DNA of 32,000 nucleotides. Origin: Planctomycetales bacterium. GTDB taxonomy: Bacteria > 4484-113 > JAFGCY01. Positions 1 through 27,551 of the stretch are shown in pieces. Position 1 is the first letter of the stretch. Each line of letters begins with the position of its first letter. The position numbers were made by a program, and so were the translations under genes. Location: positions 1,560,001 through 1,592,000 of the forward strand of contig CP060262.1 of NCBI GenBank assembly GCA_022646745.1. The letters run 5' to 3'. The notes under the pieces are model-generated. The model saw only the letters and a list, made by a program, of their open reading frames with translations. It ran no database searches and was not told where the DNA came from.

Positions 1-2625
1 CATCTCCTGGACACCATTTGGGTAAAAACCAAACAGGTAATCAGCGAAGTATGTTTCCTTGTATTCGCCAGTGCTGTGGTTGATGAGATATGAATCACTG
101 TATAACTCCGATGGTTCACCATTGTCCACTGTGCCACTGATGCTGTAGACATCCAGTCCGGCCTTGTCAACCTGCAGATTGTATGAAGCCTCGCCACCGA
201 TGACTTCAATTGCAATCAAGTAATCGCCGGCATTGTCCGCCCGGAAATAGAATGAATGATTCCCGGTTCCTGTGTGCTGGAAGAGCTGCTGCACTGGGTC
301 TGCACTTAACAAGGTGACAGCGAATTCAATGTCCTGCTCGTTTGTCGCGATGGTGAATATCAACGAACCAGGATCATCCAGGGTAAACCCGTAGTGGTCG
401 CCGCCGTCAGAGTTACTGCTGATTGTGGCGTCAACATTCACTGGGAAGGGCTGCACAGATGCATCTTCCAGAATGTCATTGGGTTCGTGATTGTCCTGTG
501 CAAGGCTGATAACAGGTGCAAGCTGGATGTCAGAATTGCCGAACTCAACCCATTCATAAGCTGGCTCGAACTGCATGCCGAAGCGTTCGTGGTGTACGAA
601 TATCCGTTCACCGGGCATGTAATCCACATTGGACTCTGCAAGTCCTTCATCTGAGTATTCGTGCTCTGTGTATTCCTGGTCAGCAGACTGAGTGTGGAAA
701 ACACATTCATCCAGTGGCGTGCCATTCAGCTCATAATAGGCTGAGAGCCTGACGGGGTCATACTCGTAGATTTCCAGCTCATATGCCATCAGGGCGCCTT
801 CCATGAACAGGCGGAGGACATAGTTGCCTTCGCTAAGCGGACCGTTGGTCCTACCCTCAAGATGTGTACCGCTCATGTCGTCAAAGCCTATGTTGACTTC
901 ACTTGAATCATACAGGTCGAAATATCCTGCATCAGGATATTCAGCAGGACCATTCTCGGGGAACCGGGCACGGAACATCACGTGCTTGCCTTCCTGTACG
1001 TCAAAACTGAAGTAGTCATAGGAATCATTGCCAGTCAGGTCGTAACCACCAATCCAGCCAGATACGGGTGTTTCCAGGGGAAGGTTGAGCGGCGTGGCGC
1101 TGGCTGAGTCGTCGTTCGGTTCCATGTCGTCAACCGGAGCTGTTGCTGACATATCGAAGTCTTGTCCGACCAGTGGACCAGATGAGAAATCATGCAGTAT
1201 GGATTCAGGGCTGAAAGTGTACACCGATGAAACAGGGCGGACCGTGGCTGGCAACGGTGCCACCTGCTTGTTGCTGATGGTTCCAGTACCGGCTGTTACC
1301 ATGACTGTCGTGAAATCTGCGTATTCCAGGCGGACCAGGCTGGTATATAGTTCCTCATACAGGCCGTCGTCTCCGTCTCCGGGATCTCCTGAGTCGTAGA
1401 GGTCAACCTCGCAGAGCTCAGGCCGGCCGCTATGCAGGCTGAGGTCGTAGAATCCACCGCCACCCTCGCAGTTGACCTCGACATGGTACTTGCCGGCGCG
1501 TGGGAAGTAGTATCCGACGACAGTTGTTCCATACAATACGTAAGAGCTGCTTGATTCGGTTGATGAGTTTCTGTCATTGAATAGCTGCAGGCTTGGGAAA
1601 AGGATGTTCTCATCACCGTCAAAGCGGATGTAATACCAATCTTCACTCGGGACAATGAAACTGTAGAAGTCGGATTCGTCATCAAGGATGCTGATGGACG
1701 CACCATTCAATGGACTTGTACCCATGTCATGCTCATTGGCGAATGCATCGTTGGGTTCAAACTCATCGCTGCCGACGAATCCACTCTTCTGGGGATTTCC
1801 CCGCAGCTCGAGACCGCTCAGATCCGCTCCGTCCACTGTAAACATCGTTGCTGCAGGAAAGAACTGAAAACCGTCCAGTGTGGCCATAATGGCCCAGTTG
1901 CCATTCGGGATGGCTGAAAGGCTGAAACTACCGTCGACAGAACTGAACACAGACTGCGGATCAAGCAGGTTTGTCGTCACCAACGCGCCCTCAACGGGGT
2001 TGTCATGCATGTCCAGCACGATTCCGCTTACGTTGAAGCGTTCAAGATACTCGAGCGTGATACTTCCAACACTGATGCCGGCTTCGCTGTCAACCAGTAC
2101 CGCAATATAGATGTATCCGGCAGGTGAGCTGTGCTGGCCTGGGCTGCCGGCTAGGTCCGTTTCGAAGTTGCTGCCGTCCGACACCCCTCCGCGCCAGTCC
2201 CAGCGACTGCTTGAGTAGTCAGCAACTGCCACCCAGTAGCTGGCCCCGGGATCCGCGCTGTCAATTGACACACTTACGTTGCCGATGCTGTCCTGGGCAG
2301 TGCCTTCAAAGCGCCAGATCGCATATTCACTGGTCCCGGCAGCCGGGTTGTAGTCTGCTGAGCCTGCGCCGGCAGAGACATTGGCGCTCGCCTCATCGAA
2401 ATTTGAGCCGGGTTTGCTCAGGCTGGAGACTGCGGGAACCCTGTACGCTGCAAAACTGCCGTCCTGCGGCAGCGCGGCCAGGAAAACTTCGGTTCCTGCA
2501 GCGGTACCCTCGACAACTGCTGGTGTAAGTCTCGATTGGATCCCCAGGTTGGAATCTGGTTTGGCCCCTCCTCCGCAGGCAGTGAGCAGGCTGATCACAA
2601 GCAGCAGGACAGTCAGAATGCGCAT
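1..2625 (-). CDS. Multi-PPC-module lipoprotein, paralog A (N-terminus complete; C-terminus runs off the left window edge)
   Basis: Not in the ORF track because there is no stop inside the window. My translation of the minus strand from ATG 2625..2623 reads MRILTVLLLVISLLTACGGGAKPDSNLGIQSRLTP (signal peptide plus lipobox LTAC). Spot translations stay in this frame: 1140..1081 = APVDDMEPNDDSASATPLNL; 480..421 = NDILEDASVQPFPVNVDATI; 60..1 = KETYFADYLFGFYPNGVQEM. All are colinear with paralogs B-E. GAGAGG lies 6 nt upstream of the ATG. I did not translate every codon. Confidence 0.85.
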   Translation of the reverse strand, partial: MRILTVLLLVISLLTACGGGAKPDSNLGIQSRLTPAVVEGTAAGTEVFLAALPQDGSFAAYRVPAVSSLSKPGSNFDEASANVSAGAGSADYNPAAGTSEYAIWRFEGTAQDSIGNVSVSIDSADPGASYWVAVADYSSSRWDWRGGVSDGSNFETDLAGSPGQHSSPAGYIYIAVLVDSEAGISVGSITLEYLERFNVSGIVLDMHDNPVEGALVTTNLLDPQSVFSSVDGSFSLSAIPNGNWAIMATLDGFQFFPAATMFTVDGADLSGLELRGNPQKSGFVGSDEFEPNDAFANEHDMGTSPLNGASISILDDESDFYSFIVPSEDWYYIRFDGDENILFPSLQLFNDRNSSTESSSSYVLYGTTVVGYYFPRAGKYHVEVNCEGGGGFYDLSLHSGRPELCEVDLYDSGDPGDGDDGLYEELYTSLVRLEYADFTTVMVTAGTGTISNKQVAPLPATVRPVSSVYTFSPESILHDFSSGPLVGQDFDMSATAPVDDMEPNDDSASATPLNLPLETPVSGWIGGYDLTGNDSYDYFSFDVQEGKHVMFRARFPENGPAEYPDAGYFDLYDSSEVNIGFDDMSGTHLEGRTNGPLSEGNYVLRLFMEGALMAYELEIYEYDPVRLSAYYELNGTPLDECVFHTQSADQEYTEHEYSDEGLAESNVDYMPGERIFVHHERFGMQFEPAYEWVEFGNSDIQLAPVISLAQDNHEPNDILEDASVQPFPVNVDATISSNSDGGDHYGFTLDDPGSLIFTIATNEQDIEFAVTLLSADPVQQLFQHTGTGNHSFYFRADNAGDYLIAIEVIGGEASYNLQVDKAGLDVYSISGTVDNGEPSELYSDSYLINHSTGEYKETYFADYLFGFYPNGVQEM

Positions 2626-2736
2626 CCGGAACCTCTCAGTAGAACATTTCTTGCAGGTGACTACATTTTAGCGAATACCCGGAACGGCATGCCAGAGGCT
2701 GTTCAGGCATCCATGCAGCCTTGCTATAATCCGCCA

Positions 2737-3426
2737 ATGAACACAGCTGCAAGGATCCTGGCTGTGCAGCAGGCCGCCGGCCGCAGGGTTGCGCTTGTCA
2801 TCAGCATCCTGATGGGACTGCTGGTCTGCATCCTGCTTATGTTCATTGCCACTTCCATATTGAACAACACCACGGGATTCACCCTGCGTGAGCTGCCCTG
2901 GATGCTGGGGGGCTGGGTCGTTCTCTCTTTGGTCCTCGGCTGGAGGATTTACGTCTGGTCTCGCAACTTGTTGCCACGCGCCGGCTCCATGCTGCAGGAA
3001 AGCCCGGCAACCGGCGACCTTGCTGCAGGCGTCTACCTTGACAGGCAGGAAGTGCAGGTCAGCAGCTTGGGCAGGAAGGTGCCGCTTATCCTGCCGGGAG
3101 TGCGTGGCATCCGGGAGCGGGGGCTGCCACTGCACCACGCACTGAGCCGGCAGAGCAGCCAGTGCGACATGCTGGTGGGCAGCCTGGTCCCGCGCCAGCC
3201 GTTATGGGGCTGCTTGCTGGCACTGCTCTTCTCCCTGCTGGTGATTGCCGGGAAGCAGCTGCCGGCGCGCCTGCCGGACCTGGACCTGCACGCACTGCAG
3301 GTGATTGCCAACCCGCTGATGAGCATGCTGCTGCTGTTCGTGCTGCTGGTGCTGCCGGTCGTGATTCGCCAGCAGGTCTGGCGCGAGGCCCTCTGCAGCG
3401 AGCTTGGAGACCGGCTGCGCAGCTGA
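2737..3426 (+). CDS. Hypothetical polytopic membrane protein (start uncertain: ATG at 2689, 2713 or 2737; track ORF begins 2536 inside paralog A)
   Basis: ORF 2536..3426. Hydrophobic stretches (VALVISILMGLLVCILLMFIATSIL, WMLGGWVVLSLVLGW, LWGCLLALLFSLLVIAG, LMSMLLLFVLLVLPVVI) suggest about 4 TM helices. Third codon positions are strongly G/C as in neighbouring genes. I recognise no family. Confidence 0.5.
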   Translation: MNTAARILAVQQAAGRRVALVISILMGLLVCILLMFIATSILNNTTGFTLRELPWMLGGWVVLSLVLGWRIYVWSRNLLPRAGSMLQESPATGDLAAGVYLDRQEVQVSSLGRKVPLILPGVRGIRERGLPLHHALSRQSSQCDMLVGSLVPRQPLWGCLLALLFSLLVIAGKQLPARLPDLDLHALQVIANPLMSMLLLFVLLVLPVVIRQQVWREALCSELGDRLRS

Positions 3427-3507
3427 GCAACAGCGTTGCGCCGGCCTCCTTCCGTCAATCCGTTGATACCGGCAGCCGACGCGGGACTGCCGTTGCCAGT
3501 GCGCCAG

Positions 3508-6500
3508 TTAGAAGACGTAGCCGGCGGTCAGGTCATACTCCAGGTCATCCGTATCACCGACGTTGATGTAATAGGTCTTGCCGGCGATGACGGGGAAGCG
3601 GATCAGTTGCTCGCCGGTGATCGGATTACGCTTGCCGCTGTTGACGGTGCTGGACCAGGTATCCTGCGCCAGCTCCACGCGGAAGCCGGCCGCCCAGTCA
3701 GCCGCTGGCTGGACCGTGATCTCGAAGATGCCGTCACTGGCTGCCGTGAACTTGTAGTAATCCGTACGGTCATTTCCGGGGCCGGCATCGTTGTCATCAT
3801 CCAGGCTGGCGTGGAAGGACGCCGGGATGCTCAGCACATAAGCGGCCCCAGAGTTGTCATTCGGCTCGCCGAAGTCGTGGTCGACGTACGTGGCGCTGAA
3901 GTCCTGTACGACGTCGGCTGTTGTCAGGTTGATTGTCGTCTTGCCTGACGGCGTGATGTTCTTGTTGGAGGCCTGCCACTCAATCTGGTAACTGCCCGCC
4001 GGCTGCCAGCCAAGATTGTAGCTGTCAGCCTGAGGGAACACAGCGATGCCAGTTGTGTGGTTGACAACCATCGTATTGTACGTCGTCTCGCCGACAACAC
4101 CGGGGTCGACACTGCCACTGATCTTGTAGACCGGCACCGTGGCTTCGCGGATACGCAGGCGGTATTCGCTTGAGCCCTCGGTTCGGCTGCGCACGATGAA
4201 CCTGTAGTCATCGGCATTCTCCGCCTTGATATAACAGTGCAGGTTCCCCTGCTGCTGGCTGCTGAACACCAGGCTGCCGTTGGAAATGCGCGTGACCGAG
4301 AGCTCGCTGTGCATGTCTGCATCGACGGGCTCGAGGAAGATCTCCAGTTCCTCGCCATCCAGGCCGTGGATTTCATAGAAGTCCTGGAAATCCGTCTCAT
4401 TGCTGATGCTCGCAGTGATGTCCACCGGCAACATCAGCTCCTTGCTTGAGGCCGCGAAGTCGTTGACCTCATTGCTGTCTGTGCCATAGCTGATCTGCGG
4501 AGCCAAGGTGATGTCGCTGCCTTCAAACACAACCCATTCAGTTGGCGGATCGAACACCAGTCCGTGGCGCTCATGCTGGACCAGTACTCGTTCCCCATCC
4601 ATGAACTTGTAAGTGAAGTCACACAGGCCGTCACTCACGCTCTGGTACTCGTCGTAGCTCTGGTCAGCCGTCAGTATCGTGCAAATTCCGAAATCCAGCG
4701 CTTCCCCGTCCAGCATGTACTGCGCCGACAAGGTGCGGGGTTCGAACTCGGTAAGCTCAAGTTCGTATCGCATCACCGGGCCTTCCATGAACACCCGCAG
4801 GAAGTAGGTCCCGGCGGCCAGCGGATCGGTGGTCCGCTTGTGCAGGGTGAACCCGGAGTAATTGTCAGTACTCACGGGATTCTCGCTTTCGTCATAGAGA
4901 TCGATGTATCCGGCATCCGGATATTCGTTCGGGCCGTTCTCGGGGAAACGGACCCGGGCCATCAGGTGTTTGCCCCCCTGCACCTCGAACTTGTAGAAAT
5001 CGTATGAATCATCATTGGTCAGTCCGAAGCCGCCGATCCAGCCTTCGAGCGGCTCCGCCATTGGCAGGCTGAGCACACTTGCATCGGCGAAGTCGTTGTT
5101 CGGCTCCTGTGAGTCCACAGGTGCAGCGGCTGACACGTTGAAGTCGAATGAGACCAGCGGGCCGGTGGAGAAGTCATGCTCAACGAAGGGCGGGTCAAAG
5201 TTGTAGAGCGGGCTGAGCGGCGTAATGGTTGCCACTACCGGTGGGATGTTGTTGTGCACTGCAGTGCCCGTGCCATAGCTCGTGACGTAGCCCTTCACGT
5301 CGTCATATGCTATCTCAACCGTTGTCAGGTACATTTCCTCATACAGCCCGTCATCGCCATCGCCGGGGCTGCCATCATCGCCCAGGTAGACCGACATTGT
5401 CTGTGTCTGTCCGGCATGCAGGCTCAGGCTGTACGTTCCACCGCCGCCCTCGCAGGTAAGTTCAACCTCGTAGTTGCCTGCACGCGGGAAGTAGTAACCG
5501 ACCCAGTTCGCTCCGTATGCGGATGACGAACTGGAGACCGTACTGATGAAACTGTCAACATGCAGGTAGAGGCTCGGAAACAGGATGCTGTCATCGCCTT
5601 CGTACTGGATGTAGTACCAGCCCTGGTCAGGCACCGGGAACTGGTAGAAGTCCACCGGGTCATCGAGGATGCTGATCGTTGCAGTCGGCGGCGTGCCGCC
5701 GGTATCACTCGCATTGTCATACAGGTTGTTCGGCTCATAGGGGTCATCTCCGACCCACCCGCTGACCTGCGGGTTGCCTCGCAGTTCCAGGCCCTCCACG
5801 TTGGCATCGGCGACATTGACAGTCACCATCGCCGGGCTGAACTGGTAACCGTCCAGCGCAACCATCACTGTCCAGCTGCCATTCGGGATTCCATTCAGAG
5901 TGAAGGTCCCGCCGGGGCCGGACAGTACCGGCTCCGAATCAAGCAGGTTCGTGGTGATCAGCGCCATGCCCAGCGGCTGGTCCTGCATGTCCAGCACCAC
6001 GCCGCTCACGTCGTAGCGCTGCAGGTACTCGATCGCCACATCGTAGACACTGAACGCAACGTCGCTGTCCGCCAGCACCGCCACATAGATATAGCCGGCC
6101 GGGGAGCTGTGCTGCCCGGCACTGCCGTTGAGCTGGAACAGGAATTCATCGCCTTCCGCAGCATGCCCCAGCCAGTCCCAGCGTCCGGTGGAATAGTCCG
6201 CAACAGCGATCCAGAAACTCGTGCCGGGTCCGCCATCGCCATAGTCAACCTGTACGCTGCCAACACTGTCCTGCGGTGTGCCCGCAAAGCGCCAGATCGC
6301 GTACTCGCTGGCTCCCGCCGGGGCATACTCCGCATCCAGGCCGGTGGCCACCACGTTGGCGGAGGCCTCGTTGAATTCACTGCCCGAAAGCGATAGGCTG
6401 GACACTGCCGGTACGCGCACCGGGTTGAACTCGCCCTCCGCCGGCAGTGCCGCATTGAACAGTTCCGTACCCGCTGCGTTGTCAAGCACGGCAGCCGGAA

Positions 6501-6597
6501 CCAGCGCACTCTGTACAGAAAGGTTGGTGGCATCACGTCCGCCGCAGGAGGCAAGCAAAAGCACTGCCAGCAGCATCACGGTCATTCTCAGTTTCAT
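3508..6597 (-). CDS. Multi-PPC-module lipoprotein, paralog B
   Basis: ORF 3508..6624. Likely start is ATG 6597..6595 (MKLRMTVMLLAVLLLASCGG; lipobox LASC) preceded by GAGGAA. It has four E-P-N-(D/N) ... D-x-Y-x-F ... Y-x-L modules of PPC type, a CarboxypepD_reg-like segment, and no HExxH. Confidence 0.88.
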   Translation of the reverse strand: MKLRMTVMLLAVLLLASCGGRDATNLSVQSALVPAAVLDNAAGTELFNAALPAEGEFNPVRVPAVSSLSLSGSEFNEASANVVATGLDAEYAPAGASEYAIWRFAGTPQDSVGSVQVDYGDGGPGTSFWIAVADYSTGRWDWLGHAAEGDEFLFQLNGSAGQHSSPAGYIYVAVLADSDVAFSVYDVAIEYLQRYDVSGVVLDMQDQPLGMALITTNLLDSEPVLSGPGGTFTLNGIPNGSWTVMVALDGYQFSPAMVTVNVADANVEGLELRGNPQVSGWVGDDPYEPNNLYDNASDTGGTPPTATISILDDPVDFYQFPVPDQGWYYIQYEGDDSILFPSLYLHVDSFISTVSSSSSAYGANWVGYYFPRAGNYEVELTCEGGGGTYSLSLHAGQTQTMSVYLGDDGSPGDGDDGLYEEMYLTTVEIAYDDVKGYVTSYGTGTAVHNNIPPVVATITPLSPLYNFDPPFVEHDFSTGPLVSFDFNVSAAAPVDSQEPNNDFADASVLSLPMAEPLEGWIGGFGLTNDDSYDFYKFEVQGGKHLMARVRFPENGPNEYPDAGYIDLYDESENPVSTDNYSGFTLHKRTTDPLAAGTYFLRVFMEGPVMRYELELTEFEPRTLSAQYMLDGEALDFGICTILTADQSYDEYQSVSDGLCDFTYKFMDGERVLVQHERHGLVFDPPTEWVVFEGSDITLAPQISYGTDSNEVNDFAASSKELMLPVDITASISNETDFQDFYEIHGLDGEELEIFLEPVDADMHSELSVTRISNGSLVFSSQQQGNLHCYIKAENADDYRFIVRSRTEGSSEYRLRIREATVPVYKISGSVDPGVVGETTYNTMVVNHTTGIAVFPQADSYNLGWQPAGSYQIEWQASNKNITPSGKTTINLTTADVVQDFSATYVDHDFGEPNDNSGAAYVLSIPASFHASLDDDNDAGPGNDRTDYYKFTAASDGIFEITVQPAADWAAGFRVELAQDTWSSTVNSGKRNPITGEQLIRFPVIAGKTYYINVGDTDDLEYDLTAGYVF
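3511..3870 (-). other. PPC-type module 4 of paralog B (C-terminal)
   Basis: GEPNDNSGAAYVLSIPASFHASLDDDND...DRTDYYKFTAASDGIFEITV...GKTYYINVGDTDDLEYDLTAGYVF. Confidence 0.6.
4144..4476 (-). other. PPC-type module 3 of paralog B (most divergent module between paralogs)
   Basis: SNEVNDFAASSKELMLPVDITASISNETDFQDFYEIHGLDGEELEIFL...DDYRFIVRSRTEGSSEYRLRI. Confidence 0.5.
4747..5109 (-). other. PPC-type module 2 of paralog B
   Basis: QEPNNDFADASVLSLPMAEPLEGWIGG...DDSYDFYKFEVQGGKHLMARV...GTYFLRVFMEGPVMRYELEL. Confidence 0.6.
5410..5739 (-). other. PPC-type module 1 of paralog B
   Basis: YEPNNLYDNASDTGG...ILDDPVDFYQFPVPDQGWYYIQ...GNYEVELTCEGGGGTYSLSL. The EPNN codons were verified at 5728..5736. Confidence 0.6.
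5776..6015 (-). other. Carboxypeptidase-regulatory-like beta-sandwich segment of paralog B (aa ~204-283 of the track ORF)
   Basis: YDVSGVVLDMQDQPLGMALITTNLLDSEPVLSGPGGTFTLNGIPNGSWTVMVALDGYQFSP fits the familiar pattern isGxVxDxxGxPlxGAxVxx...DxxGxFxlxglPxGxYxlxvxxxGY. Assigned by eye, not by HMM. Confidence 0.55.
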
Positions 6598-6662
6598 CTT
6601 CTGTTCCTCATTGTCAGTTGTCAAATCGGTACGGCCGCTGCCGGTTGCATCATTCCAGGCGG

Positions 6663-9600
6663 TTACAGGTAGTCAACCAGTAGCTGGTATCGCAGGTCAA
6701 CGAAGCCGTCAACCTTTACGAAGTAAGTCTCGCCGGCCTTGACGTTCCAGCGCATGGTCTGCGAGCTGCCATCCGTGGAAAACTTGCCAATGTTGACCAG
6801 GGTCGAAATGCTGCCTTCGAACAGTGACAAATCGTAGTCAGCCGGGCTGTTCTCCTGGTGCATGCTCTGCAGCTCGATGTGGCCATCCGTCGGGGCAATG
6901 AACTTGTAGTAATCCGTCGTGTCCCGTCCGCCGGGCAGGTAGTCGTTGTCATAGTCGAGGTTGGCAGTCAGGTCTACGGGCAGTGTCAGCAGGGCAGCGC
7001 TTCCGGAGTTGTCATTCGGTTCGTTGCTGTCCTTGTCACTGTATACCGCACTGTAGTCCAGCACGGCATCCGCATTGCTGATGGCAACGGTTGTCTTTCC
7101 GGATGGCGTGATGTTCCTGTTGGAGATCTGCCACTGGATGTCATAGCTGCCGTTGGGATAGTAGCCCAGCAGGTAGCTCGAACCCGTTGCCTCGCGATAC
7201 TCACCAGTAGTATGGTTCAGGATGTAGCCGCGCAGGTAGTTTTCCGACGGCTCGCCGTTGTCAAGGCTGCCGCTGATGCTGTAGACATTGAAGCCTGCTT
7301 TGTTGATCTGCAGAGAGTAGTCCAGGTCCACTGCATTGGCCACGCTGACCTCGACGATGTAATCGCCCGGATCAGGTGTGCGGTAGTAGAAGCTGTGGTC
7401 ACCCCGGCCGATGTGGTCGTAGATCACCTGCGTGCTGGGGGCCTTGCTGAAGCGCAGGCGCACCAGGGCGTCTGGGCTGCTGCAGCCGAGCTGCACCACC
7501 AGTGATTCCGGGCCCTGCAGGCTGAACATGTAATAGTCATAATTGTCAGTTGAGGAGGAGCAGCTGGCCTCGACCTGGACCGGGAACTGCACTTCCGGCA
7601 CATCGGCGAATACGTCACTCGGCTCCAGCTTATCCGTGCTTGGCGTCGCCGTTGGCGTGAGCTGGATATCCTGTGTGCCGAATTCCACCCATTCATACTC
7701 CGGATCGAACTGCATGCCATACCGCTGGTGGTGTACGAGTACTCTCTCACCGGGGCGGAACTTATCCTCCACTTCCGCCAGGCCGGCAAAGCAGTATTCC
7801 AGATTCATGATGCTTGCATCCGCCGTGATGTAGCTGAATTTCACGTCTTCAAGCGGCACACCCTTGTACTCATAGTAGGCAGACAGCGAAAGTGGGTCGT
7901 ACTCCTCGATCCAGATTTCGTAGGGCATCAGGTTGCCATCCATGTTGAGTGTCAGGAAGTACTCCTGCGCGGGCAGTGCCACCTGGCTGCGCCCGTCAAT
8001 CTGGAAGATGCTGTCTGCCAGCAGGGTGTAATTGTTGCCCAGCGAATCACGCAGTGCCAGACCTCCACTGTCGATGAATCGCAGCGGTCCGTTCTGCGGG
8101 AAACGCACCTGCACGAAGAGGTGCTTGTTGCCGGAACTCTCGAACCGGAAGACATCATACTCATCATTAGTGAGGGACTCGCCACCGATCCAGCCGGTGA
8201 TCGGTGCTGACAGCGGCAGCACGAGCTGGGTGGCATTGCTGTTGTCATTGTTGGGTTCCATCGGGTCATCGGGAGCAACGGCGCTGACGTTGAAGTCCAG
8301 GTTGAACAGGTCCCCTGTGGAGAAATCATGCTGGGCCTGCGGGGGCTCAAAGCTGTAAAGCGGGTCCAGCGGCACGATCGTTGCCGGCAGTGGAGCAACG
8401 TACTGCATGCTGACGTAACCGTTTCCTGAGCTGTACAGCGTACATGTCGCATCAGGCAAGCGCAGCTCAATTCGTGAGGACCGGAGTGATTCGAATATTC
8501 CGTCATCTCCATCCCCGGGATCGCCGGTATCCTCGATGTAGCAGCCGAAACCACTGGTCTGCCCCGGCTTGATGCTGAGGCTGTACTGTCCCGCTCCGGC
8601 TTCACAGCCCACACTGACATAGTAAGTACCGGGCCGCTGGAAGTAATAGCCAACCCAGGTTGCACCACTCAGCACCGTGAAGTCACTTGCTACGCGATTG
8701 GCGCTTTCATCGTTCTGGAGCTTGATGTCCGGGAACAGGATGCTGTCATCGCCGATGAACTCGAGGTAATACCAGCCCTCCTGGGGGACTTCAAAGCTGT
8801 AGTAGTCCACCGGGTCATCCAGGATGCCGAGGCTGGCTCCGGTGAGCGCGCCGCTGCCCATGTCCGAGGCGTTGGCAAAGAAGTCATTGGGTTCAAACTC
8901 GTCGCTGCCCACGAGCCCGCTCACACGGGGATTGCCCCGCAGCACCAGGCCGTTGATATCTGCGTCAGCGACTGTGACATTCGTGGCCGCCGGGAAGAAT
9001 TCATGCCCGGCAAGCGTTGCCATCACGGCCCAGTTGCCATTCGGGATGCCCGCCAGGCTGAAGCTGCCATCCGCAGCACTGAAGACCTGCTGCGGGTCTG
9101 CCAGGTTGGTCGTCACCAGCACGCCCGCCAGCGGCCGGTCCAGCATGTCCAGTACGACACCGCTCACGTTGTAGCGCTGCAGGTACTCAATGCTGACGCT
9201 GCCAACGCTCAGTGCCTTGTCCGTGTCGCAAAGGACCGCCACGTAGATGTAGCCGGCGGCTGAGCTGTGCTGGCCAGGGCTGCCCGCCAGGTCGGTCTCG
9301 AAAGCGCTGCCATCATCCCTGCCTCCTCGCCAGTCCCAGCGGCCGCTGGAATAGTCGGCCACCGCGACCCAGTAGCGCGCACCGGCTTCAGCGCTGTCGA
9401 TCGTGACGCTGACTTTGCCGATGCTGTCCTGCGGAGTGCCGAGGAAGCGCCAGATCGCATACTCACTTGTGCCGGCAATCGGGTTGAAGTCCGCGGTGGT
9501 GGATCCGGCTGTGACATTGCCGCTGGCTTCATTGAAGCTGGACCCCGGCAGGCTCAGGCTTGAGACCGCCGGTACGCGGTCTTCAGGCTGGCCGTCATCC

Positions 9601-9764
9601 AACGGCAGGGCAGCCTGGAAGATCTCAGTGCCGGCTGATTGTGACTCGACCGCTGCCGGTAACAGCCTGGCCTCCACCAAAGGGCTGTCAGTTCCCCGGC
9701 CAGCCCCCCCGCAGGCCGTCAGCAGGCAGCAGGCAAGCAGCAGTGATGCTAGCGTTGTGCGCAT
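6663..9764 (-). CDS. Multi-PPC-module lipoprotein, paralog C
   Basis: 1033-aa ORF. N-terminus MRTTLASLLLACCLLTACGG (lipobox LTAC). AAGAGG lies upstream of the ATG. Same module order as B (FEPNDFFANASD, MEPNNDNSNATQL, LEPSDVFADVPE, NEPNDNSGSAALL). Confidence 0.9.
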   Translation of the reverse strand: MRTTLASLLLACCLLTACGGAGRGTDSPLVEARLLPAAVESQSAGTEIFQAALPLDDGQPEDRVPAVSSLSLPGSSFNEASGNVTAGSTTADFNPIAGTSEYAIWRFLGTPQDSIGKVSVTIDSAEAGARYWVAVADYSSGRWDWRGGRDDGSAFETDLAGSPGQHSSAAGYIYVAVLCDTDKALSVGSVSIEYLQRYNVSGVVLDMLDRPLAGVLVTTNLADPQQVFSAADGSFSLAGIPNGNWAVMATLAGHEFFPAATNVTVADADINGLVLRGNPRVSGLVGSDEFEPNDFFANASDMGSGALTGASLGILDDPVDYYSFEVPQEGWYYLEFIGDDSILFPDIKLQNDESANRVASDFTVLSGATWVGYYFQRPGTYYVSVGCEAGAGQYSLSIKPGQTSGFGCYIEDTGDPGDGDDGIFESLRSSRIELRLPDATCTLYSSGNGYVSMQYVAPLPATIVPLDPLYSFEPPQAQHDFSTGDLFNLDFNVSAVAPDDPMEPNNDNSNATQLVLPLSAPITGWIGGESLTNDEYDVFRFESSGNKHLFVQVRFPQNGPLRFIDSGGLALRDSLGNNYTLLADSIFQIDGRSQVALPAQEYFLTLNMDGNLMPYEIWIEEYDPLSLSAYYEYKGVPLEDVKFSYITADASIMNLEYCFAGLAEVEDKFRPGERVLVHHQRYGMQFDPEYEWVEFGTQDIQLTPTATPSTDKLEPSDVFADVPEVQFPVQVEASCSSSTDNYDYYMFSLQGPESLVVQLGCSSPDALVRLRFSKAPSTQVIYDHIGRGDHSFYYRTPDPGDYIVEVSVANAVDLDYSLQINKAGFNVYSISGSLDNGEPSENYLRGYILNHTTGEYREATGSSYLLGYYPNGSYDIQWQISNRNITPSGKTTVAISNADAVLDYSAVYSDKDSNEPNDNSGSAALLTLPVDLTANLDYDNDYLPGGRDTTDYYKFIAPTDGHIELQSMHQENSPADYDLSLFEGSISTLVNIGKFSTDGSSQTMRWNVKAGETYFVKVDGFVDLRYQLLVDYL

Positions 9765-9844
9765 CCGAAGTACCTCTTATTTCATCTGTTTGTAGTCTGT
9801 CCAGGGAAGATCATTCTAGCGAAAAACACGCCGGATTAAGCCCC

Positions 9845-12800
9845 TCATGGCAGGAAGTCGCCGCTGACCACGTACCGCACATCCTCCGTTGACTGGATGT
9901 AGAGATAGTAGGTCAGTCCGGACTTCACTTCATAGCCCAGCCGGCGTGAGCCATTCAGCGGGTTCAACCTGCCGAAGTTGACGATGTTGCCTATGTTTTC
10001 CTCGCTCAGTGAGACCGGAAACACCTCCAGTCCCCCGAACAGCGGCACCACCGTGATCTGGAAGAAGCCGTCCTGGGCCGGCACGAACTTGTAGTAGTCC
10101 CGGCTGTCCTTCCCGCCGACCAGCACGTCGTTGTCATAGTCCAGGCTGGCACTGAAGCTGAAGGGGATCGTAAGCACTGCGCCGGTGTTAGCCGAATCGT
10201 TCGGCTCCAGGTTGTCCTGGTCCACGTAGGTGGCAGTGAAGTTCTGCACCGTATCCGCACCGCTGATCGTGACCGTCACCGCGCCGGGCGGTGAGACGGT
10301 GTGGTTCGAGGTGTACCAGCGCAGGTCGTAGTCCCCATCAGGGTAGGGGCCCAGTTCGTAGTTGCTGCCGCCGTTCGGCCTGTAGACCTCGCCAGTGGTT
10401 TCGTTGACCAGCTGCGTGCCTGCATAGCTCTCCGTCAAGCTGCCGTGGTCCAGCGTTCCGGTGATGTAGTGGACGGGCACAGAAGTCTCTATCTTCAGGT
10501 TGTAGGAAGTCTCGCCAGTGTTGGCGAGGATGGCGAAGGTGTAATCATCATCGTCAGGCAGTTCGAACCAGAAGGTGGAGCTGCCGCGGGCCTTGTGGGA
10601 CCCAAGCTGTGCGCTGCCGGAGGTCTTCTCCACCCAGCACTCCAGTTCCACATCAGTTTCGTCTGGGGTCAGCGTGAGCATCACCGGCCCGGCGCTCATG
10701 CCCTGAACTCCGTAGTAATCAGCGTAGTCAGTCACGGCGCTGATATTGCCATTCACATCCGCCGGAAAGCTGACGACGAAGGGGTCGCTTGCGAAGTCGT
10801 TCGGTTCCGTGGCATCATCCGCCACGCTGATCGCCGGTTCGAGCAGGATGTCCGAGCCGTCGAACTGGATCCACTGCTCCGGCGGGTCAAAGCTCAGGCC
10901 GCGGTGCTTGTAGGAGACGTGCAGCAGCTCCCCGTCCATGAACGGGTCGGAGTCGAAATCCAGCCCGGGGCTGTAGTAGTTGGTCGCGTACCGGTACCCG
11001 GATGGCACGATCTCATACGAAACCCTGCCATAGTCCAGCTCCTTGCCATCCAGTGTGAAGTATACGGACAGCTTTCGTCGCGGGAACTGCAAGACTTCCA
11101 GTTCATAGGGGGTCAGTTCCCCGCTCCAGTAGATGTACAGGTAATAGCTGCCTGCAGGCAGGGGCTGCAGGGTACGCAGTTCTGAATACTGGCCGTGGCT
11201 GTAATCAAGGCAGAACACCTGGCTGTCCATGTCGTCGAACAGGAACATGAAGGGGATCCCGCCTGCCTGGTTCTCCATTTCCGGCAGGTAGGCCCGCAGG
11301 GTCAGGTCCATCCCGTCCTGCACGTCAAAGCTGTAGAAGTCCTGCTCATCATTTAGGGTCAGGTCACGGCCGCCGATGTAGCCGGCATGCGGCTGAGCCA
11401 TCGGCAATGTCAGCGGCACGGCGGACAGCTTGTCATTGTTCGGCTCGTCGCTGTCAACAACTGTTGCCGCACTGAAGTTGAAGTCGACGCCGGACAGGTC
11501 TCCTGATGCGAAGTCATGCTGGATTGCCAGTGGGTCAAATGTATAGCGCTCTGAGTGCGGGGTGATCGTCGCCTCAAGCGGGGGCATGAAGCGGTGGTCG
11601 AGGTATCCGCCTGAACTGGGGATCTCGCAGCTGGAATCCCCAAAATCAACCGTGACGGCGCAGTTGCGCATCTCCTCAGCCAGCCCGTCATCACCATCCC
11701 CCGGAAGGCCCGTGTCAATCAGCTGCATGTCCAGCGAATGGCAACGGCCATCCAGCAGCTCCAGGCTGTAATGCCCGCCGCCACCCTCGCAGTAGACCTC
11801 GACGCGGTACTCGCCCGCCACCGGGAAGTAGTATCCGAGCCAGTTCGTGCCACGTACCACCTCATAGTCCCCGATGTAATCGGAGAACAGGTCGGTCTGC
11901 AGGGAAAGGTGCGGGAACAGGATGCTGTTGTCAGCATTGAGCTGCAGGTAGTGCCAGCCTGCCGTTGCCACCGGGAAGGTGTAGCAGTCGTACTCATCGT
12001 CAAGGGCGCTGATCGTGGCATCCGTCACCATCTCCGGGCCAAGTGGCTCTGCATTCTCCGCCAGGTCGTTGGGCTCGTACAAGTCGTCCGGGAAGCCGAA
12101 GCTGCGCGGGAAGCCCTGCAGCAGCAGACCGTTGACATCGCTGTCCGTGATGTCCACCATGGTCAGGTCCGGATCGAAGCCCCAGTTGCGCAGGGTTGCC
12201 ATCACCGCCCAGCTGCCGGCCGGCAGGCCGTCAAGCCGGAAGCTGCCATCCGCCGCGCTGAGCACCTGCTGCACGTCAAGCAGGTTGGTGGACAGCAGTG
12301 CACCCTCGATCGGGTTGCCGGACTTGTCCTGCACGAAGCCGCTGACGGAATAGCGCTGCAGGTACTGGATGCCAACGGCTGCTATGCTCAGCTGCGAGCC
12401 GGCCTCAGCCAGCACGGCTACATAGATGTAGCCCGCCGGTGAGCTGTACTGGCCGTTGCCACTGCCGGGCACGGCATCGAAGTCCGAGCCGTCCGCCACA
12501 TCCCCGAGCCAGCTCCAGCGCCCGCTGGAATAGTCAGCCAGCGCTGTCCAGTAGCGTGTGCCGGGCTGGGCAGACTCAACGGTGACGTTCACCATCCCAA
12601 GCGCATCATCAGGCGTGCCGCTGAAGCGCCAGATCGCGTACTCGCTGCCTGCCGATACGGCATAATCCGCCAGTTCGCCATTCACGCTGACATTCGTGGA
12701 GGCTTCATTGAATCCGCTGCCCGCTAGCTCGATTGTCGCCAGCGCCGCCACGCGGGAGGGGTTGAAATGCCCCTCATCCGGCAGGGATGTGTTGAATATG

Positions 12801-12925
12801 GCCTGGTGCTCCGTGACGGCAGGCACGATTGCTGATACGGCAACTGAGTCCTGCTGTCCACCCCGGCCTCCGCAGGAGCACAGCAGCAACGAAATGGCAA
12901 TCAGTGTGGATGTAAGGTGTTTCAT
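9845..12925 (-). CDS. Multi-PPC-module lipoprotein, paralog D
   Basis: ORF 9845..12973. Likely start is ATG 12925..12923 (MKHLTSTLIAISLLLCSCGG) with GGGAG about 10 nt upstream. Modules: YEPNDLAENAEPL, DEPNNDKLSAVPL, TEPNDFASDPFVV, LEPNDSANTGAVL. Confidence 0.88.
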   Translation of the reverse strand: MKHLTSTLIAISLLLCSCGGRGGQQDSVAVSAIVPAVTEHQAIFNTSLPDEGHFNPSRVAALATIELAGSGFNEASTNVSVNGELADYAVSAGSEYAIWRFSGTPDDALGMVNVTVESAQPGTRYWTALADYSSGRWSWLGDVADGSDFDAVPGSGNGQYSSPAGYIYVAVLAEAGSQLSIAAVGIQYLQRYSVSGFVQDKSGNPIEGALLSTNLLDVQQVLSAADGSFRLDGLPAGSWAVMATLRNWGFDPDLTMVDITDSDVNGLLLQGFPRSFGFPDDLYEPNDLAENAEPLGPEMVTDATISALDDEYDCYTFPVATAGWHYLQLNADNSILFPHLSLQTDLFSDYIGDYEVVRGTNWLGYYFPVAGEYRVEVYCEGGGGHYSLELLDGRCHSLDMQLIDTGLPGDGDDGLAEEMRNCAVTVDFGDSSCEIPSSGGYLDHRFMPPLEATITPHSERYTFDPLAIQHDFASGDLSGVDFNFSAATVVDSDEPNNDKLSAVPLTLPMAQPHAGYIGGRDLTLNDEQDFYSFDVQDGMDLTLRAYLPEMENQAGGIPFMFLFDDMDSQVFCLDYSHGQYSELRTLQPLPAGSYYLYIYWSGELTPYELEVLQFPRRKLSVYFTLDGKELDYGRVSYEIVPSGYRYATNYYSPGLDFDSDPFMDGELLHVSYKHRGLSFDPPEQWIQFDGSDILLEPAISVADDATEPNDFASDPFVVSFPADVNGNISAVTDYADYYGVQGMSAGPVMLTLTPDETDVELECWVEKTSGSAQLGSHKARGSSTFWFELPDDDDYTFAILANTGETSYNLKIETSVPVHYITGTLDHGSLTESYAGTQLVNETTGEVYRPNGGSNYELGPYPDGDYDLRWYTSNHTVSPPGAVTVTISGADTVQNFTATYVDQDNLEPNDSANTGAVLTIPFSFSASLDYDNDVLVGGKDSRDYYKFVPAQDGFFQITVVPLFGGLEVFPVSLSEENIGNIVNFGRLNPLNGSRRLGYEVKSGLTYYLYIQSTEDVRYVVSGDFLP

Positions 12926-12976
12926 ATGGGATTCACTCCCTGGCTCTGGAATTTTTCGGTGGAACTGTAGCATGGG

Positions 12977-15900
12977 TCAGGGCAGGTAATCCCCGGCCAG
13001 CTGGTAAACGATGTCAACATCCGATGTTACATGGATCACGTAATCCTGGCCAGCCTGCAGCTCAAAGGTCAGCCGGTGCACGCCGGTCAGCTCGTCACGT
13101 TGCGCGAGTACCGTGCCGCCATCGGCAGTGCTGCGCAGCTCAAGCTTCAGCTGGCTCAGGGATGGCAGCCAGGGCACGGCCGTTAGCTCAAAGCTGCCCG
13201 TGCCCGGTGCGGTGAATTTGTAGTAGTCCTGGCCATCCCCGAAGGCTCCGACATTGACATCATCGAAGTCCAGGCTGGCAACCGTGCTGATCGGGATGCT
13301 GAGCGGGGTGGCGGCGATGGTGCTGTTGTTCGGCTCCCCGCTGTCATTGCTCTGGTAGCTTGCGGTGAAGTCCTGCACCGCATCCGCGCCATTGACAACC
13401 ACGGTCACGGCTCCGAGCGGTACGGTCAGGTGGTTTGCGATGTACCACTGGATGTCATAGCTTCCCTCCGGTACGAACCCAAGGTCGTATGACGGCCCCG
13501 TGACGGGCAGCACCCTGCCGGTGGTCTGGTTGACGATGAAGCCGCCATCGTACTGGTCGCCGGGTGTACCATGGTCAAGCGATCCGCTGATGCTGTAGAC
13601 CGGCCCGCCGGCCATGTCCATGTCCAGGCTGTAGGTCGATGACCCTCCGTCCGCGCTGAGCCGCAGGATGTAATCGGCCTTTGCCGCTGACCGGTAGTAC
13701 AGCTGCTCATCACCCTGCCCGCTGACGAGCTGGTAGTCGCCGGGTGTACTTTCCCCGTAGAACATGCAGGTCCAGAGCGTGTCCGGGTCCGTCATCTTCA
13801 GGTTTACCGCCACCCCGCCGGCCTCCAGGCCGCCCAGCCGGTAACAGTCGACCTCGTCAGACAGCGAGCTGATGCTGGCAACGACTTCGACAGGCAGCTC
13901 CAGGTCCTCAGTGATCAGTGATGGCAGGGCATTGGGCTCCAGGCTGTCGCTGCCGATTGTCAGCTTCGGGAAGGTGGTCCTGTCCTCGGCGCCGAGCTGG
14001 ATCCACTCCACCGGCGGGTCGATTGCCATCCCGTTGCGCTCATAGGCCAGCTTGATGAACTCACCCTCCATCAGGGGCACTCCAACGGTGGCTGTGCCGC
14101 TGGAGACGTTTTCCGTGTCAGTGTAGTTGCCATCCCCGGTCTGCCAGTGCATCTGCCCGTCAGACAGCGGATTGCCGGACAGCAGCCAGCTGCTGGAGAG
14201 CGTGCGGCCCTCGAACAGGAACAGTTCCAGCTCATAGGCCATCATGGTCCCGCCCATGTCCAGCTGCAGGTAATAGTCGCCCGCCGCCAGCGGGTCCCGG
14301 CTGCGCAGTTCCAGTTGCCAGGGACCTGACATGTCATGGATCTGGACGGTGTTCTCACTGGAATTGAAAAGCCGCAGGTTGCCGGCCATGTCCGGCCCGG
14401 AGGCCTGATCCTCGGGGAAGCGTACCCGGGCCAGTACATATTCGTCCCCCGCTGCGCTGAAGCTGAAGACGTCACGGGCGTCGTTGCCCGTGAGGTCATT
14501 CCCTCCGATGAAGCCCGCAAGCGGCGCTGCCAGTGGCAGGCTGAGTGGGCTGGCCGTGCTGAAGTCGTCATTCGGCTCCATGGAATCCGCCGGCGCCACT
14601 GCGGAAAAATTGAAGTCCGCCACCAGCTGGCCGCTGGAGAAGTCATGCTCAATGCTGGCCGGCTCAAAGGTGTAGCGCGGGCTGACCGGCCGCACCGTGG
14701 CCGGCAGCGGCGGTATGTGGTAGTGCCATAGTTCGAATTCCCCCGGCGTGAGCAGCTTCGCCGTGTATTCCGCGAATTCCAGCTCGATGACGGTGTTGTC
14801 CATCGCCTCCTGCAGGCCGTCGTCACCGTCTCCCGGCGCACCGTTGTCAAACAGCGTGAGGTTCAGGAACTCGCCTCGGCCCTGCTGCAGGTGCAGCTCA
14901 TATTCGCCGCCGCCCGCCTCGCAGCGCACCTCGGCGAAATAGCTGCCCGGCTGCGGAATGTAGAAACTGAACCAGGCGGCCCCGGACAGGCTGTCATAGT
15001 TCAGCCCGGAGAAGATGTCGAGATTGCCCTGCAGCCTGACCGTCGGGAACAGTATGCTGTCATCTCCGCGGAACTCGAGGTAATGCCAGCCCGTCTCGCT
15101 GGCGTCAAAGCTATAGAAGTCCGCTGCGTCATTCAGCACGCTCAACGTCGAACTGACAACCGGGAACTGGTTGATCTGGTGTGCATCGCGGATGATGTCA
15201 TTCGGCTCATACGGATCATTCACCTTCGGCCGCGTGCTGAAGATCTCCCCACGCAGCACCAGCCCTTCCACATCGGCATTGGAAACCCCGACTGTGTTCA
15301 CCAAGGGGTCAAACAGGTAGTTCTCCACGGTCGCAAACACCGACCATGAACCGTTTGGGATGCCGGGCAGGCTGAAGGATCCATCCTCCGCGCTGAACAC
15401 CTGGCGCGGGTCCGCGAGGTTGGTGGTGACCAGTGCCCCGGCAATCGGGTGCCCGCCGTAGTCCAGCACATGGCCACTGATGTCGTAGCGGTTGAGGTAC
15501 TCCAGTGTGAGCCTGTCCACTGCGAAGCCCGCATTGCCGTTGCTTATGATGGCGACGTAGATGTAGCCGGCCCCGGAACTGTGCATGCCTGGCTCGCCGG
15601 CAACGTCAAAATTGTCACCGCCGGCTTCCCCTGTGCCACCGAGCCATTGCCAGCGGCCAGTGTCGTAGTTGGCAATCCCGGCCCAGTAGACGAAGCCCGG
15701 CTGCTCCCCACTGGTCTGGATGCTGAGGCTGCCTATGCTGTCGAGCGGGGCTGCTTCAAAACGCCAGATCGCGTAGTGCAGTTCACCCTGTGGGTCAAAC
15801 AGCGCCGCCGGACTGGCTGAGCCAACGTTGGAGCTGGCTTCATGGAACTGCTCACCGTCCTTCGCCAGGCTGGAAACCGCAGGCACGCGGGTGCTGTCGA

Positions 15901-16063
15901 AACCGCTGTCTGCAGGCAGTGATGCGTTGAAGACCCCGAGCTGGTCGAGCTCTGTGGCGGGGACCGGAATCTGCCGGGCCTCGCCGTCGAACTGTCGCTT
16001 GCCATTGCATGCGGAGAGGATCAGGATCGAAAGTAAGATCGCAGGAATCAGATTGCGGTCCAT
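12977..16063 (-). CDS. Multi-PPC-module lipoprotein, paralog E
   Basis: 1028-aa ORF. N-terminus MDRNLIPAILLSILILSACNG (lipobox LSAC). GAAGGAAG lies upstream. Modules: YEPNDIIRDAHQI, MEPNDDFSTASPL, LEPNALPSLITE, GEPNNSTIAATPL. Confidence 0.9.
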   Translation of the reverse strand: MDRNLIPAILLSILILSACNGKRQFDGEARQIPVPATELDQLGVFNASLPADSGFDSTRVPAVSSLAKDGEQFHEASSNVGSASPAALFDPQGELHYAIWRFEAAPLDSIGSLSIQTSGEQPGFVYWAGIANYDTGRWQWLGGTGEAGGDNFDVAGEPGMHSSGAGYIYVAIISNGNAGFAVDRLTLEYLNRYDISGHVLDYGGHPIAGALVTTNLADPRQVFSAEDGSFSLPGIPNGSWSVFATVENYLFDPLVNTVGVSNADVEGLVLRGEIFSTRPKVNDPYEPNDIIRDAHQINQFPVVSSTLSVLNDAADFYSFDASETGWHYLEFRGDDSILFPTVRLQGNLDIFSGLNYDSLSGAAWFSFYIPQPGSYFAEVRCEAGGGEYELHLQQGRGEFLNLTLFDNGAPGDGDDGLQEAMDNTVIELEFAEYTAKLLTPGEFELWHYHIPPLPATVRPVSPRYTFEPASIEHDFSSGQLVADFNFSAVAPADSMEPNDDFSTASPLSLPLAAPLAGFIGGNDLTGNDARDVFSFSAAGDEYVLARVRFPEDQASGPDMAGNLRLFNSSENTVQIHDMSGPWQLELRSRDPLAAGDYYLQLDMGGTMMAYELELFLFEGRTLSSSWLLSGNPLSDGQMHWQTGDGNYTDTENVSSGTATVGVPLMEGEFIKLAYERNGMAIDPPVEWIQLGAEDRTTFPKLTIGSDSLEPNALPSLITEDLELPVEVVASISSLSDEVDCYRLGGLEAGGVAVNLKMTDPDTLWTCMFYGESTPGDYQLVSGQGDEQLYYRSAAKADYILRLSADGGSSTYSLDMDMAGGPVYSISGSLDHGTPGDQYDGGFIVNQTTGRVLPVTGPSYDLGFVPEGSYDIQWYIANHLTVPLGAVTVVVNGADAVQDFTASYQSNDSGEPNNSTIAATPLSIPISTVASLDFDDVNVGAFGDGQDYYKFTAPGTGSFELTAVPWLPSLSQLKLELRSTADGGTVLAQRDELTGVHRLTFELQAGQDYVIHVTSDVDIVYQLAGDYLP

Positions 16064-16114
16064 CAGGCTTCCTTCAGGTGATTTCCGTTACCGGAATTTT
16101 ACCTTGCAGGAAGC

Positions 16115-19273: not shown

Positions 19274-19373
19274 TGACCAAACACGTTCCACCGGCATGCG
19301 TCTAGACGTATGAAGTGGACTCAAGGAAGGCGGAATCAATTTGAGCTCGGGCGGCTCGTCTACAGGCAGCAGG

Positions 19374-27549: not shown

Positions 27550-27551
27550 TC

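Follow-up and report, generated by a model that had tools for sequence, protein, structure and literature searches.

The window analysed here, i.e., a stretch of 32,000 nucleotides (nt) from contig CP060262.1 of a Planctomycetales bacterium, carries in its first half a tandem array of large and diverged predicted lipoproteins, designated paralogs A to E. The large open reading frames (ORFs) within positions 1-16063 all lie on the minus strand, and four of them (E, D, C and B) encode complete paralogs of 1026-1033 amino acids (aa), with the fifth (A) crossing the window start (Table 1). Since the proteins align end to end at a pairwise identity of 38-55%, i.e., far above chance, both the ORFs and the alignments bear out the original prediction, made from the sequence alone, of five same-strand, diverged lipoprotein paralogs of ~1,030 aa. 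Its five-gene array stands in that five copies are present, but A is only partially contained in the window, the 882 nt separating B from A hold a gene on the opposite strand, and a sixth copy is found beyond the window edge. The latter is seen on a scaffold from ENA (L001), which equals the window sequence except for one 7-nt indel and reaches past the window start, where A attains its full length of 1033 aa and the sixth paralog (P0006, 1032 aa) comes next.

Lipoproteins were recognised by a positive n-region, a hydrophobic core and a lipobox ([LVI][ASTC][GAS]C) within ~30 residues, and each window copy indeed starts with these three elements, the n-region being basic. All five motifs that had been listed (LTAC, LASC, LTAC, LCSC and LSAC for A to E, with GG or NG after them) were confirmed, and a lipobox-like cysteine occurs in essentially all relatives, close and distant. 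This type II signal peptide with its lipobox cysteine predicts a lipid anchor. Moreover, the window copies are strongly acidic, with an isoelectric point of 4.05-4.10, 14-15% aspartate plus glutamate and ~4% lysine plus arginine. The family has no assigned function, as had been supposed: the public records say only 'carboxypeptidase regulatory-like domain-containing protein' (for some identical proteins in full, 'MAG: carboxypeptidase regulatory-like domain-containing protein [Planctomycetales bacterium]'), and literature searches for this architecture returned nothing relevant.

Table 1. Window positions of the array genes, the domains of paralog C and the genes and leader next to the array.
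Feature	Position	Strand	Remarks
Paralog A	1..2625	-	874 of 1033 aa within window; lipobox LTAC-GG; G+C at third codon positions (GC3) 0.59; visible part 100% identical to P0002
229-aa multi-pass membrane-protein gene	2737..3426	+	Between B and A; L001 and L002 likewise have it as a called gene
Paralog B	3508..6597	-	ORF, 1029 aa; lipobox LASC-GG; identical to P0013
Paralog C	6663..9764	-	ORF, 1033 aa; lipobox LTAC-GG; copy used for the AlphaFold model
PPC module 4 of C	6666..7037	-	Residues 910-1033
Ig-like domain 4 of C	7038..7292	-	Residues 825-909
PPC module 3 of C	7293..7640	-	Residues 709-824; domain diverging most among paralogs
Ig-like domain 3 of C	7641..7892	-	Residues 625-708
PPC module 2 of C	7893..8276	-	Residues 497-624
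Ig-like domain 2 of C	8277..8558	-	Residues 403-496; holds acidic loop P-G-D-G-D-D-G
PPC module 1 of C	8559..8918	-	Residues 283-402
CarboxypepD_reg (transthyretin-like) of C	8919..9176	-	Residues 197-282; Pfam PF13620; NOMO match in PDB
N-domain of C	9177..9602	-	Residues 55-196; jelly roll resembling CBM6/35/86; no Pfam family
Signal peptide and disordered linker of C			Residues 1-54; linker ~35 residues
Paralog D	9845..12925	-	ORF, 1026 aa; lipobox LCSC-GG; start ATG at 12925; identical to P0021
Paralog E	12977..16063	-	ORF, 1028 aa; lipobox LSAC-NG; heads the array; P0020 99.9% identical
Leader of paralog E	16064..16114	-	51 nt; stable hairpin, 3' arm over Shine-Dalgarno (SD)-like GAAGGAAG; minimum free energy -33.5 kcal/mol, z -5.1
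232-aa lipoprotein	16115..16813	-	Lipobox LSAC; heads the array in 4/4 syntenic genomes; no Pfam, PDB or PADLOC match
245-aa single-pass membrane protein	16817..17554	-	Precedes the 232-aa gene at a distance of 3 nt, the two being conserved together; without match in Pfam, PDB or PADLOC
98-aa ORF	17581..17877	-	Conserved; precedes the 245-aa gene; L009 and L010 both have it as a called gene; without match in Pfam, PDB or PADLOC

Domain anatomy of the paralogs

An AlphaFold2 model of paralog C, built on a family alignment of 28 sequences, is all-beta, with nine beta-sandwich domains spanning the whole length (mean predicted local distance difference test score (pLDDT) of 85.6 and predicted template-modelling score (pTM) of 0.72). 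Domain borders were set from the strand pattern of this model together with internal profile comparisons. The overall plan, as modelled, is a domain resembling a carbohydrate-binding module (CBM), followed by four pairs of an immunoglobulin (Ig)/transthyretin-like domain and a pre-peptidase C-terminal (PPC) module. The PPC modules had been described as 'stand-alone', a description contradicted by both the model and the profile comparison, in which they alternate with three Ig/transthyretin-like beta-sandwiches of 84-94 aa each. The acidic loop in the first of these inter-PPC segments (i.e., Ig-like domain 2) is invariant in six copies (A-E and the sixth), and in the 28-sequence family alignment the majority of its residues do not vary.

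The carboxypeptidase-regulatory-like (CarboxypepD_reg) sandwich claimed earlier is present at 28-35 bits, with three of the five copies (A 33.0, B 33.5 and D 35.3) above the Pfam gathering score of 32.3 bits and the other two slightly under it (C 28.3 and E 31.2); among distant full-length relatives the scores rise to 42-59 bits. Because the likeness of the three inter-PPC domains to CarboxypepD_reg is weak (hhalign probability of 7-31%), these were named Ig-like by fold only.

The conserved N-terminal module of ~140 aa was likewise recovered, as a domain with a confident fold at approximately residues 55-196. Because Foldseek searches with the whole model were swamped by generic multi-sandwich matches (template-modelling score (TM) of ~0.1), this N-domain was modelled separately and yielded a jelly roll (pLDDT of 88.4, pTM of 0.85). 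In the PDB it matched CBM6 (2cdp/2cdo, E 1.7e-5) and, more weakly, CBM86, CBM61, CBM35, CBM36 and CBM29, with target-normalised TM values of 0.5-0.65, and among viral structures it matched solely generic phage-fibre jelly rolls. By sequence, no Pfam family was matched in any of 32 sequences, no membership of a curated CBM family was found, and a search against PDB sequences gave no match (best E 0.38). The jelly roll may thus serve as a lead toward glycan binding, not as proof of it. Among the paralogs, mean identity is highest in the N-domain and CarboxypepD_reg (51-57%) and lowest in Ig3 and PPC3 (28-40%).

PPC modules, their calcium motif and the absence of an enzyme domain

Since scans of single sequences gave sub-threshold matches to the Pfam PPC family (PF04151, gathering score of 25.9 bits), i.e., 14.4-18.2 bits for A, B and C and no match for D and E, a profile of the modules was needed to establish their homology. 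Some relatives do have a precomputed PF04151 match, and P0030 reaches 24.7 bits. The four modules per protein are mutually homologous (hhalign probability of 90-98.6%, E 1e-6 to 7.5e-16), and a profile of the 19 window modules matched the tandem collagen-binding domains s3a-s3b of ColG (5iku) with E 1.5e-20 over positions 6-113 of 116, as well as ColG s3b (~2e-12) and ColH s3 (1e-8). The same 5iku entry came at or near the top in the whole-protein profile search, and was the best PDB Foldseek match of the whole C model (E 7e-11). Collagen-binding domains of M9B collagenases are themselves PPC domains (PMC6168687). The claim of four PPC-type modules per protein, each opening on E-P-N-D, therefore holds at the profile level: single sequences stay below the Pfam cut-off, but the module profile matches ColG and ColH over its full length.

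Across the 19 window modules, the conserved columns read D-x-x-E-P-N-(D/N), D-x-x-D, G-x-Y and Y-x-L, of which the glutamate, D-x-x-D and the core tyrosines are invariant in 19/19 and P-N almost so. In the HMMER alignment, these motifs fall on ENND/EPNDD and DSRD/DDAD of ColG. The calcium ligands of ColG, E899, E901, N903 and D904 in the N-terminal linker together with D927 and D930, were reportedly identified as a dual-calcium site by Wilson et al. in 2003. This numbering was reproduced by residue count on the 4hpk sequence, and equivalents of D927 and D930 are present in all 19 window modules. The PPC modules probably retain the two-calcium site of the clostridial collagen-binding domains. 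The collagen contacts of ColG (T957, Y970, Q972, L992, Y994 and Y996) correspond to positions that vary across the 19 window modules and are for the most part polar or charged, i.e., the contact surface is not kept. To judge from these residues, the modules have the fold and calcium site of a collagen-binding domain but not its collagen-binding surface, and their ligand would not be collagen specifically, because the contact residues are not kept.

No catalytic domain had been seen in the proteins, and none was found here. Pfam and NCBIfam scans of the paralogs returned no catalytic or peptidase family, but only borderline CarboxypepD_reg and sub-threshold PPC matches; none of the motifs HExxH, HxxEH and CxEQ, nor a conserved GxSxG, occurs in the six copies; and every domain of C is a small beta-sandwich of at most 142 aa, leaving no space for an enzyme domain. 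The segments between the PPC modules, in which a catalytic domain might have been hidden, are the 84-94-aa beta-sandwiches described above. The premise that PPC domains are normally single appendages of proteases proved too narrow, since the same profile search that extended the family (see below) also brought up many unrelated proteins that have 6-11 strong PPC domains but lack an enzyme domain. Several PPC modules in a protein without a protease are thus common in metagenomes.

A hidden enzyme or protease-linked accessory, be it a cryptic peptidase, a collagen-specific binder or an alpha-2-macroglobulin-type trap, could be argued from the usual company of PPC and CarboxypepD_reg with peptidases, and from the complement/alpha-2-macroglobulin entries among the Foldseek matches (E ~1e-7 to 1e-5). 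We nevertheless consider it highly improbable, as every residue of the model is assigned to a small beta-sandwich, the motifs of such enzymes and a helical thioester domain are missing, no peptidase gene is linked to the array, and the equivalents of ColG Y970, L992, Y994 and Y996 are variable and mostly polar. Specifically, an identity as M9 collagenase or zinc peptidase was rejected on the absence of HExxH/HxxEH and of any peptidase family in Pfam or NCBIfam, and collagen-specific binding on the variability of the ColG contact positions in all 19 modules. An identity as bacterial alpha-2-macroglobulin was rejected on the lack of CxEQ and of a helical thioester domain, the all-beta model, and Foldseek TM values of ~0.1, at which these matches reflect repeated sandwiches only. 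The other Foldseek matches of the C model are non-catalytic beta-sandwich arrays (pilins, SdrD and complement).

Distribution, evolution and transcription of the array

A word-indexed search recovered 23 full-length relatives, all of 1002-1041 aa and from a handful of metagenome assemblies. An exhaustive profile search added ~20 more distant, near-full-length relatives (P0027-P0048, mostly ~1000-1040 aa) and shorter lipoproteins that have the N-domain and three to four CarboxypepD_reg domains without PPC. Four genomes, labelled Planctomycetales, UBP7 or 4484_113, share a gene order consisting of lptD, a 138-aa zinc-ribbon-like gene, a ~255-aa gene, the 98-aa ORF, the 245-aa membrane protein, the ~230-aa lipoprotein and the array, in which the copies number 4 + 2 in the window genome, at least 6 in UBP7 HKST-UBA03, 7 in AC1.30 and 3 in 4484_113 JAFGCY01. 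The 232-aa and 245-aa proteins are 64-82% identical to those of the window across these syntenic genomes. More distant genomes have one copy, with unrelated neighbours and without the head genes. In a single-member genome (L005 1141-9445, minus strand), the neighbours are two ~1010-aa proteins with an anthrax-PA/binary-toxin calcium-binding domain and a PKD+PPC protein.

Such a conserved setting would suit a structural envelope component with no external ligand, i.e., a calcium-dependent S-layer-like coat or a periplasmic spacer or tether, with the N-domain docking onto envelope glycan of the cell itself or else onto the 232-aa lipoprotein and the 245-aa membrane protein encoded alongside. The array follows the same two envelope-protein genes, near lptD, in all four genomes, its proteins are very acidic with conserved calcium motifs, a pTM as high as 0.72 over nine domains points to a defined rigid body, conservation is strongest in the membrane-proximal domains, and selection is purifying (see below). 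Against this, 3-7 paralogs at 38-55% identity make an odd set for one lattice or tether, relatives elsewhere occur singly and without the two head genes, and PPC domains of known role bind substrates (PMC6168687). On balance, we hold a purely structural role to be unlikely.

In a neighbour-joining tree, the paralog clades are older than the split of the syntenic genomes, and the earlier claim of diversification in tandem agrees with the 38-55% identity of the paralogs and with the 3-7 copies at one locus. Positional orthologs of HKST-UBA03 and AC1.30 are 93-95% identical, except for positions 2 (81%, synonymous divergence (dS) of 0.43) and 5 (56%, dS of 0.83), with a dS of 0.11-0.21 at the other positions and in the flanks. 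We read positions 2 and 5 as individual alleles that were probably replaced by recombination. At position 5 (L004 16255-19347 vs. L009 16306-19398), both alleles have the same signal peptide (MNRLLICWLLPALLLVSCGGG), and a mosaic allele replacement with a breakpoint within the gene is suggested. Likewise, A and the sixth copy are nearly identical over 60 nt upstream and the first ~170 nt of coding sequence (93%) and ~57% identical beyond (window 2560-2700, L001 7405-7670), a pattern that points to gene conversion at the 5' end or a duplicated promoter/leader cassette. GC3 amounts to 0.59 in A, 0.75-0.80 in B-E and 0.83-0.90 in housekeeping neighbours. The composition of A looks as foreign as that of the McrBC island in the same window.

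The ratio of nonsynonymous to synonymous divergence (dN/dS) between orthologs is 0.17-0.27 per gene and 0.14-0.31 per domain, with the top values in PPC2 and PPC3. In three of four flanking genes it is 0.04-0.14, and the proteins encoded by the fourth (the 138-aa gene) do not differ in sequence. The orthologs are under purifying selection, and this leaves the earlier idea of a decoy family without support. Domain-averaged positive selection was ruled out by the same values (0.14-0.31 in every domain).

Regarding transcription, purine-rich SD-like runs lie 6-11 nt ahead of each ATG, and the gaps within E-D-C-B are short (E-D 48 nt, D-C 80 nt and C-B 65 nt), contain no terminator-like site and fold no better than shuffled sequence. 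An SD-like sequence for each gene and short, terminator-free gaps among B-E had been anticipated, and both were found. The single very long transcript proposed for all five genes is impossible, because the plus-strand gene separates B from A. With no terminators in the E-D-C-B gaps, co-transcription of the 98-aa ORF, the 245-aa and 232-aa genes and E-D-C-B is possible; the 5' leaders of A and the sixth copy are duplicates of each other. Several gaps hold a -10-like box, GCTA(A/G)AAT or GGTAAAAT, 40-55 nt before the ATG, which recurs in the orthologous gaps of other genomes, and a TTGACT-16-AATGAT site was found upstream of B in a consensus scan; the terminator and promoter consensus scans performed at or below chance level. 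The arms of the hairpin in the leader of E read AGGCUUCCU...AGGAAGCCU, and stems of other sequence cover the SD region in L009 (3617-3719), L004 (~3560-3665) and L010 (3582-3654), with weak z values of -1.1 to -1.9. These putative promoter boxes and leader stems are hints at the level of consensus.

Some of these features would also be expected of a variable surface repertoire under phage or predator pressure, i.e., antigenic variation or decoys, with copies being exchanged or differentially expressed. Next to the 3 to 7 copies at one locus, these are the divergence of positions 5 and 2 between close genomes, the near-identical leader and signal peptide of A and the sixth copy at ~57% identity elsewhere, the foreign-looking GC3 of A, and the -10-like boxes that several gaps have of their own. 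Such a repertoire nonetheless appears improbable, given that no domain shows diversifying selection on average, that the paralog clades are old and common to several genomes, and that a tandem-repeat scan revealed no invertible promoter, slippery repeat or diversity-generating element in the window.

Within the window, the neighbours of the array are small envelope proteins without family, lptD, sucD, an NmrA-like gene and McrBC. The 229-aa membrane protein encoded between B and A has no Pfam, PDB or PADLOC match, and its C-terminus is cut, leaving 206 aa, by a 7-nt deletion in the public scaffold of the same population. The 138-aa protein (18778-19194, plus strand) has two CxxC pairs, zinc-ribbon-like, and no family assignment; its conservation is extreme, with 100% identity between the HKST-UBA03 and AC1.30 proteins and 86-88% between these and the window protein. 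The LptD-like protein (19341-22682, plus strand; 1113 aa) has an LptD_N match only and a long low-complexity N-terminal extension, in which a 30-nt unit that encodes AEKETPPAN(A) is repeated 5.3 times in tandem at 19443-19605. Further downstream, a low-GC island (25506-29801, minus strand; GC of 0.47-0.57) comprises McrC-like (26434-27549) and McrB-like AAA_5 (27552-29801) genes and, adjoining these, a D12-class (Dam-like) adenine methyltransferase that looks disrupted into two ORFs (25854-26330 and 25506-25844). Beside McrBC lies a 490-aa ORF (30163-31635, minus strand) with no Pfam or PADLOC match and with an 18-nt tandem repeat at 30371-30419.

Proposed role and comparison with known systems

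The reading that we favour, and to which we give about an even chance, is that the array encodes calcium-stiffened, non-enzymatic envelope lipoproteins that bind polymers or surfaces with paralog-specific preferences. Each protein would be held by its lipid anchor and would extend through a disordered linker of ~35 residues into a membrane-proximal, CBM-shaped jelly roll and four pairs of Ig/transthyretin-like domain and PPC module. Calcium is known to order the linker of the ColG collagen-binding domains, and here it may lock each Ig-PPC junction, turning the acidic chain into a stiff multi-domain body. At the cell envelope, the most likely task of the proteins would then be to capture insoluble polymers, whether glycan or protein, or to adhere to them, with the conserved proximal domains possibly having a common docking role and the variable Ig3/PPC3 region adding specificity. 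The paralogs probably differ in ligand specificity, because they are old, each under purifying selection and most different in Ig3/PPC3, and the locus would evolve through duplication, loss and replacement of single alleles. Of the surface-binding (adhesin) or decoy family originally envisaged, the binding part is thus plausible and the decoy part unsupported.

Several points weigh against this proposal. The CBM-like fold match of the N-domain is generic (TM of ~0.5), and the same fold is also present in Cry toxin domain III and phage fibre domains. Calcium binding is presumed from the conservation of the motif only, the surface location of these lipoproteins in their lineage is likewise presumed, and the source organism is uncultured. 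Moreover, in none of the genomes examined is the array linked to a gene for a transporter, glycoside hydrolase or peptidase, so that a pathway context for substrate capture is missing.

More speculatively, the array and its head genes (the 98-aa ORF and the 245-aa and 232-aa genes) might form a dedicated surface system of a candidate phylum, in which calcium-rigid stalks with a common docking domain carry exchangeable distal Ig/PPC tips that set attachment (to a substrate, partner cell, prey or phage), specificity is re-assorted by allele recombination, and each copy is regulated from its own leader. We regard this elaborate version as rather unlikely. Should the binding reading be true, an uncultured lineage found in saline activated sludge and sediments would have in this family its main surface or envelope repertoire, and the family would help to learn what its cells harvest or attach to.

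Among known systems, SusE and SusF of Bacteroides are non-catalytic surface glycan-binding lipoproteins with an N-terminal Ig-like domain and tandem CBM-like sandwiches. The array proteins resemble them in their predicted lipid anchor, all-beta multi-domain body, lack of enzyme domains and CBM-like domain, but no homology was shown, the CBM-like domain of the array proteins is membrane-proximal, and no SusC/SusD-like transporter or glycoside hydrolase occurs at the window or syntenic loci. A second parallel is the calcium-stiffened stalk of Gram-positive adhesins such as SdrD, whose B repeats each bind calcium and in series form a rigid rod. Both have transthyretin/CarboxypepD_reg-clan sandwiches and serial calcium sites (predicted for the array proteins), with a Foldseek match to the SdrD entry 10ps (E 3.6e-6) and weak SdrD_B Pfam matches in relatives. 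Unlike SdrD, the array proteins lack both a sortase LPXTG anchor and a fibrinogen-binding A domain, and their putative calcium sites lie in the PPC modules.

Multi-PPC proteins from metagenomes (e.g., P0106 with 11 PPC domains, P0084 with 8, P0085 with 7, and P0068 with 6 plus RTX) are similar in having many PPC domains and no recognisable enzyme domain. They differ in their length of 1300-1900 aa, their strong Pfam PPC scores and, in some, type IX secretion sorting, RTX or FG-GAP, and none of them combines a lipobox, the N-domain, CarboxypepD_reg and alternating Ig-like and PPC domains at a fixed length of ~1030 aa. Conversely, the shorter relatives P0125, P0127, P0142, P0151 and P0162 (530-600 aa) share the lipobox, the jelly-roll N-domain, the first CarboxypepD_reg and the absence of an enzyme domain, but have three to four CarboxypepD_reg domains and no PPC modules.

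The family is lineage-restricted, of envelope type and mostly made of known parts, none of which is mechanistically unexpected, and it opens no long-standing question. All parts other than the N-domain are known folds, and both non-catalytic multi-sandwich lipoproteins and multi-PPC proteins are familiar. The exact architecture is not described in the domain libraries or the literature searched, and the N-domain, as an unannotated family, is a candidate for domain databases. The closest counterpart of the PPC modules themselves is found in the collagen-binding domains of ColG (s3a and s3b) and ColH (s3), which likewise are beta-sandwiches of ~110-125 aa matched by a full-length profile, with the calcium motif E-x-N-D at the N-terminal linker plus D-x-x-D, the core G-x-Y and Y-x-L, and tandem use in ColG. 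In contrast to these collagenases, the array proteins have no M9 catalytic module or PKD domain, have Ig-like domains between their PPCs, do not conserve the collagen contacts, and are predicted to be lipid-anchored rather than secreted, so that the fold and calcium switch of a collagen-binding domain appear to be reused here as a serial block in lipoproteins unrelated to collagenases.

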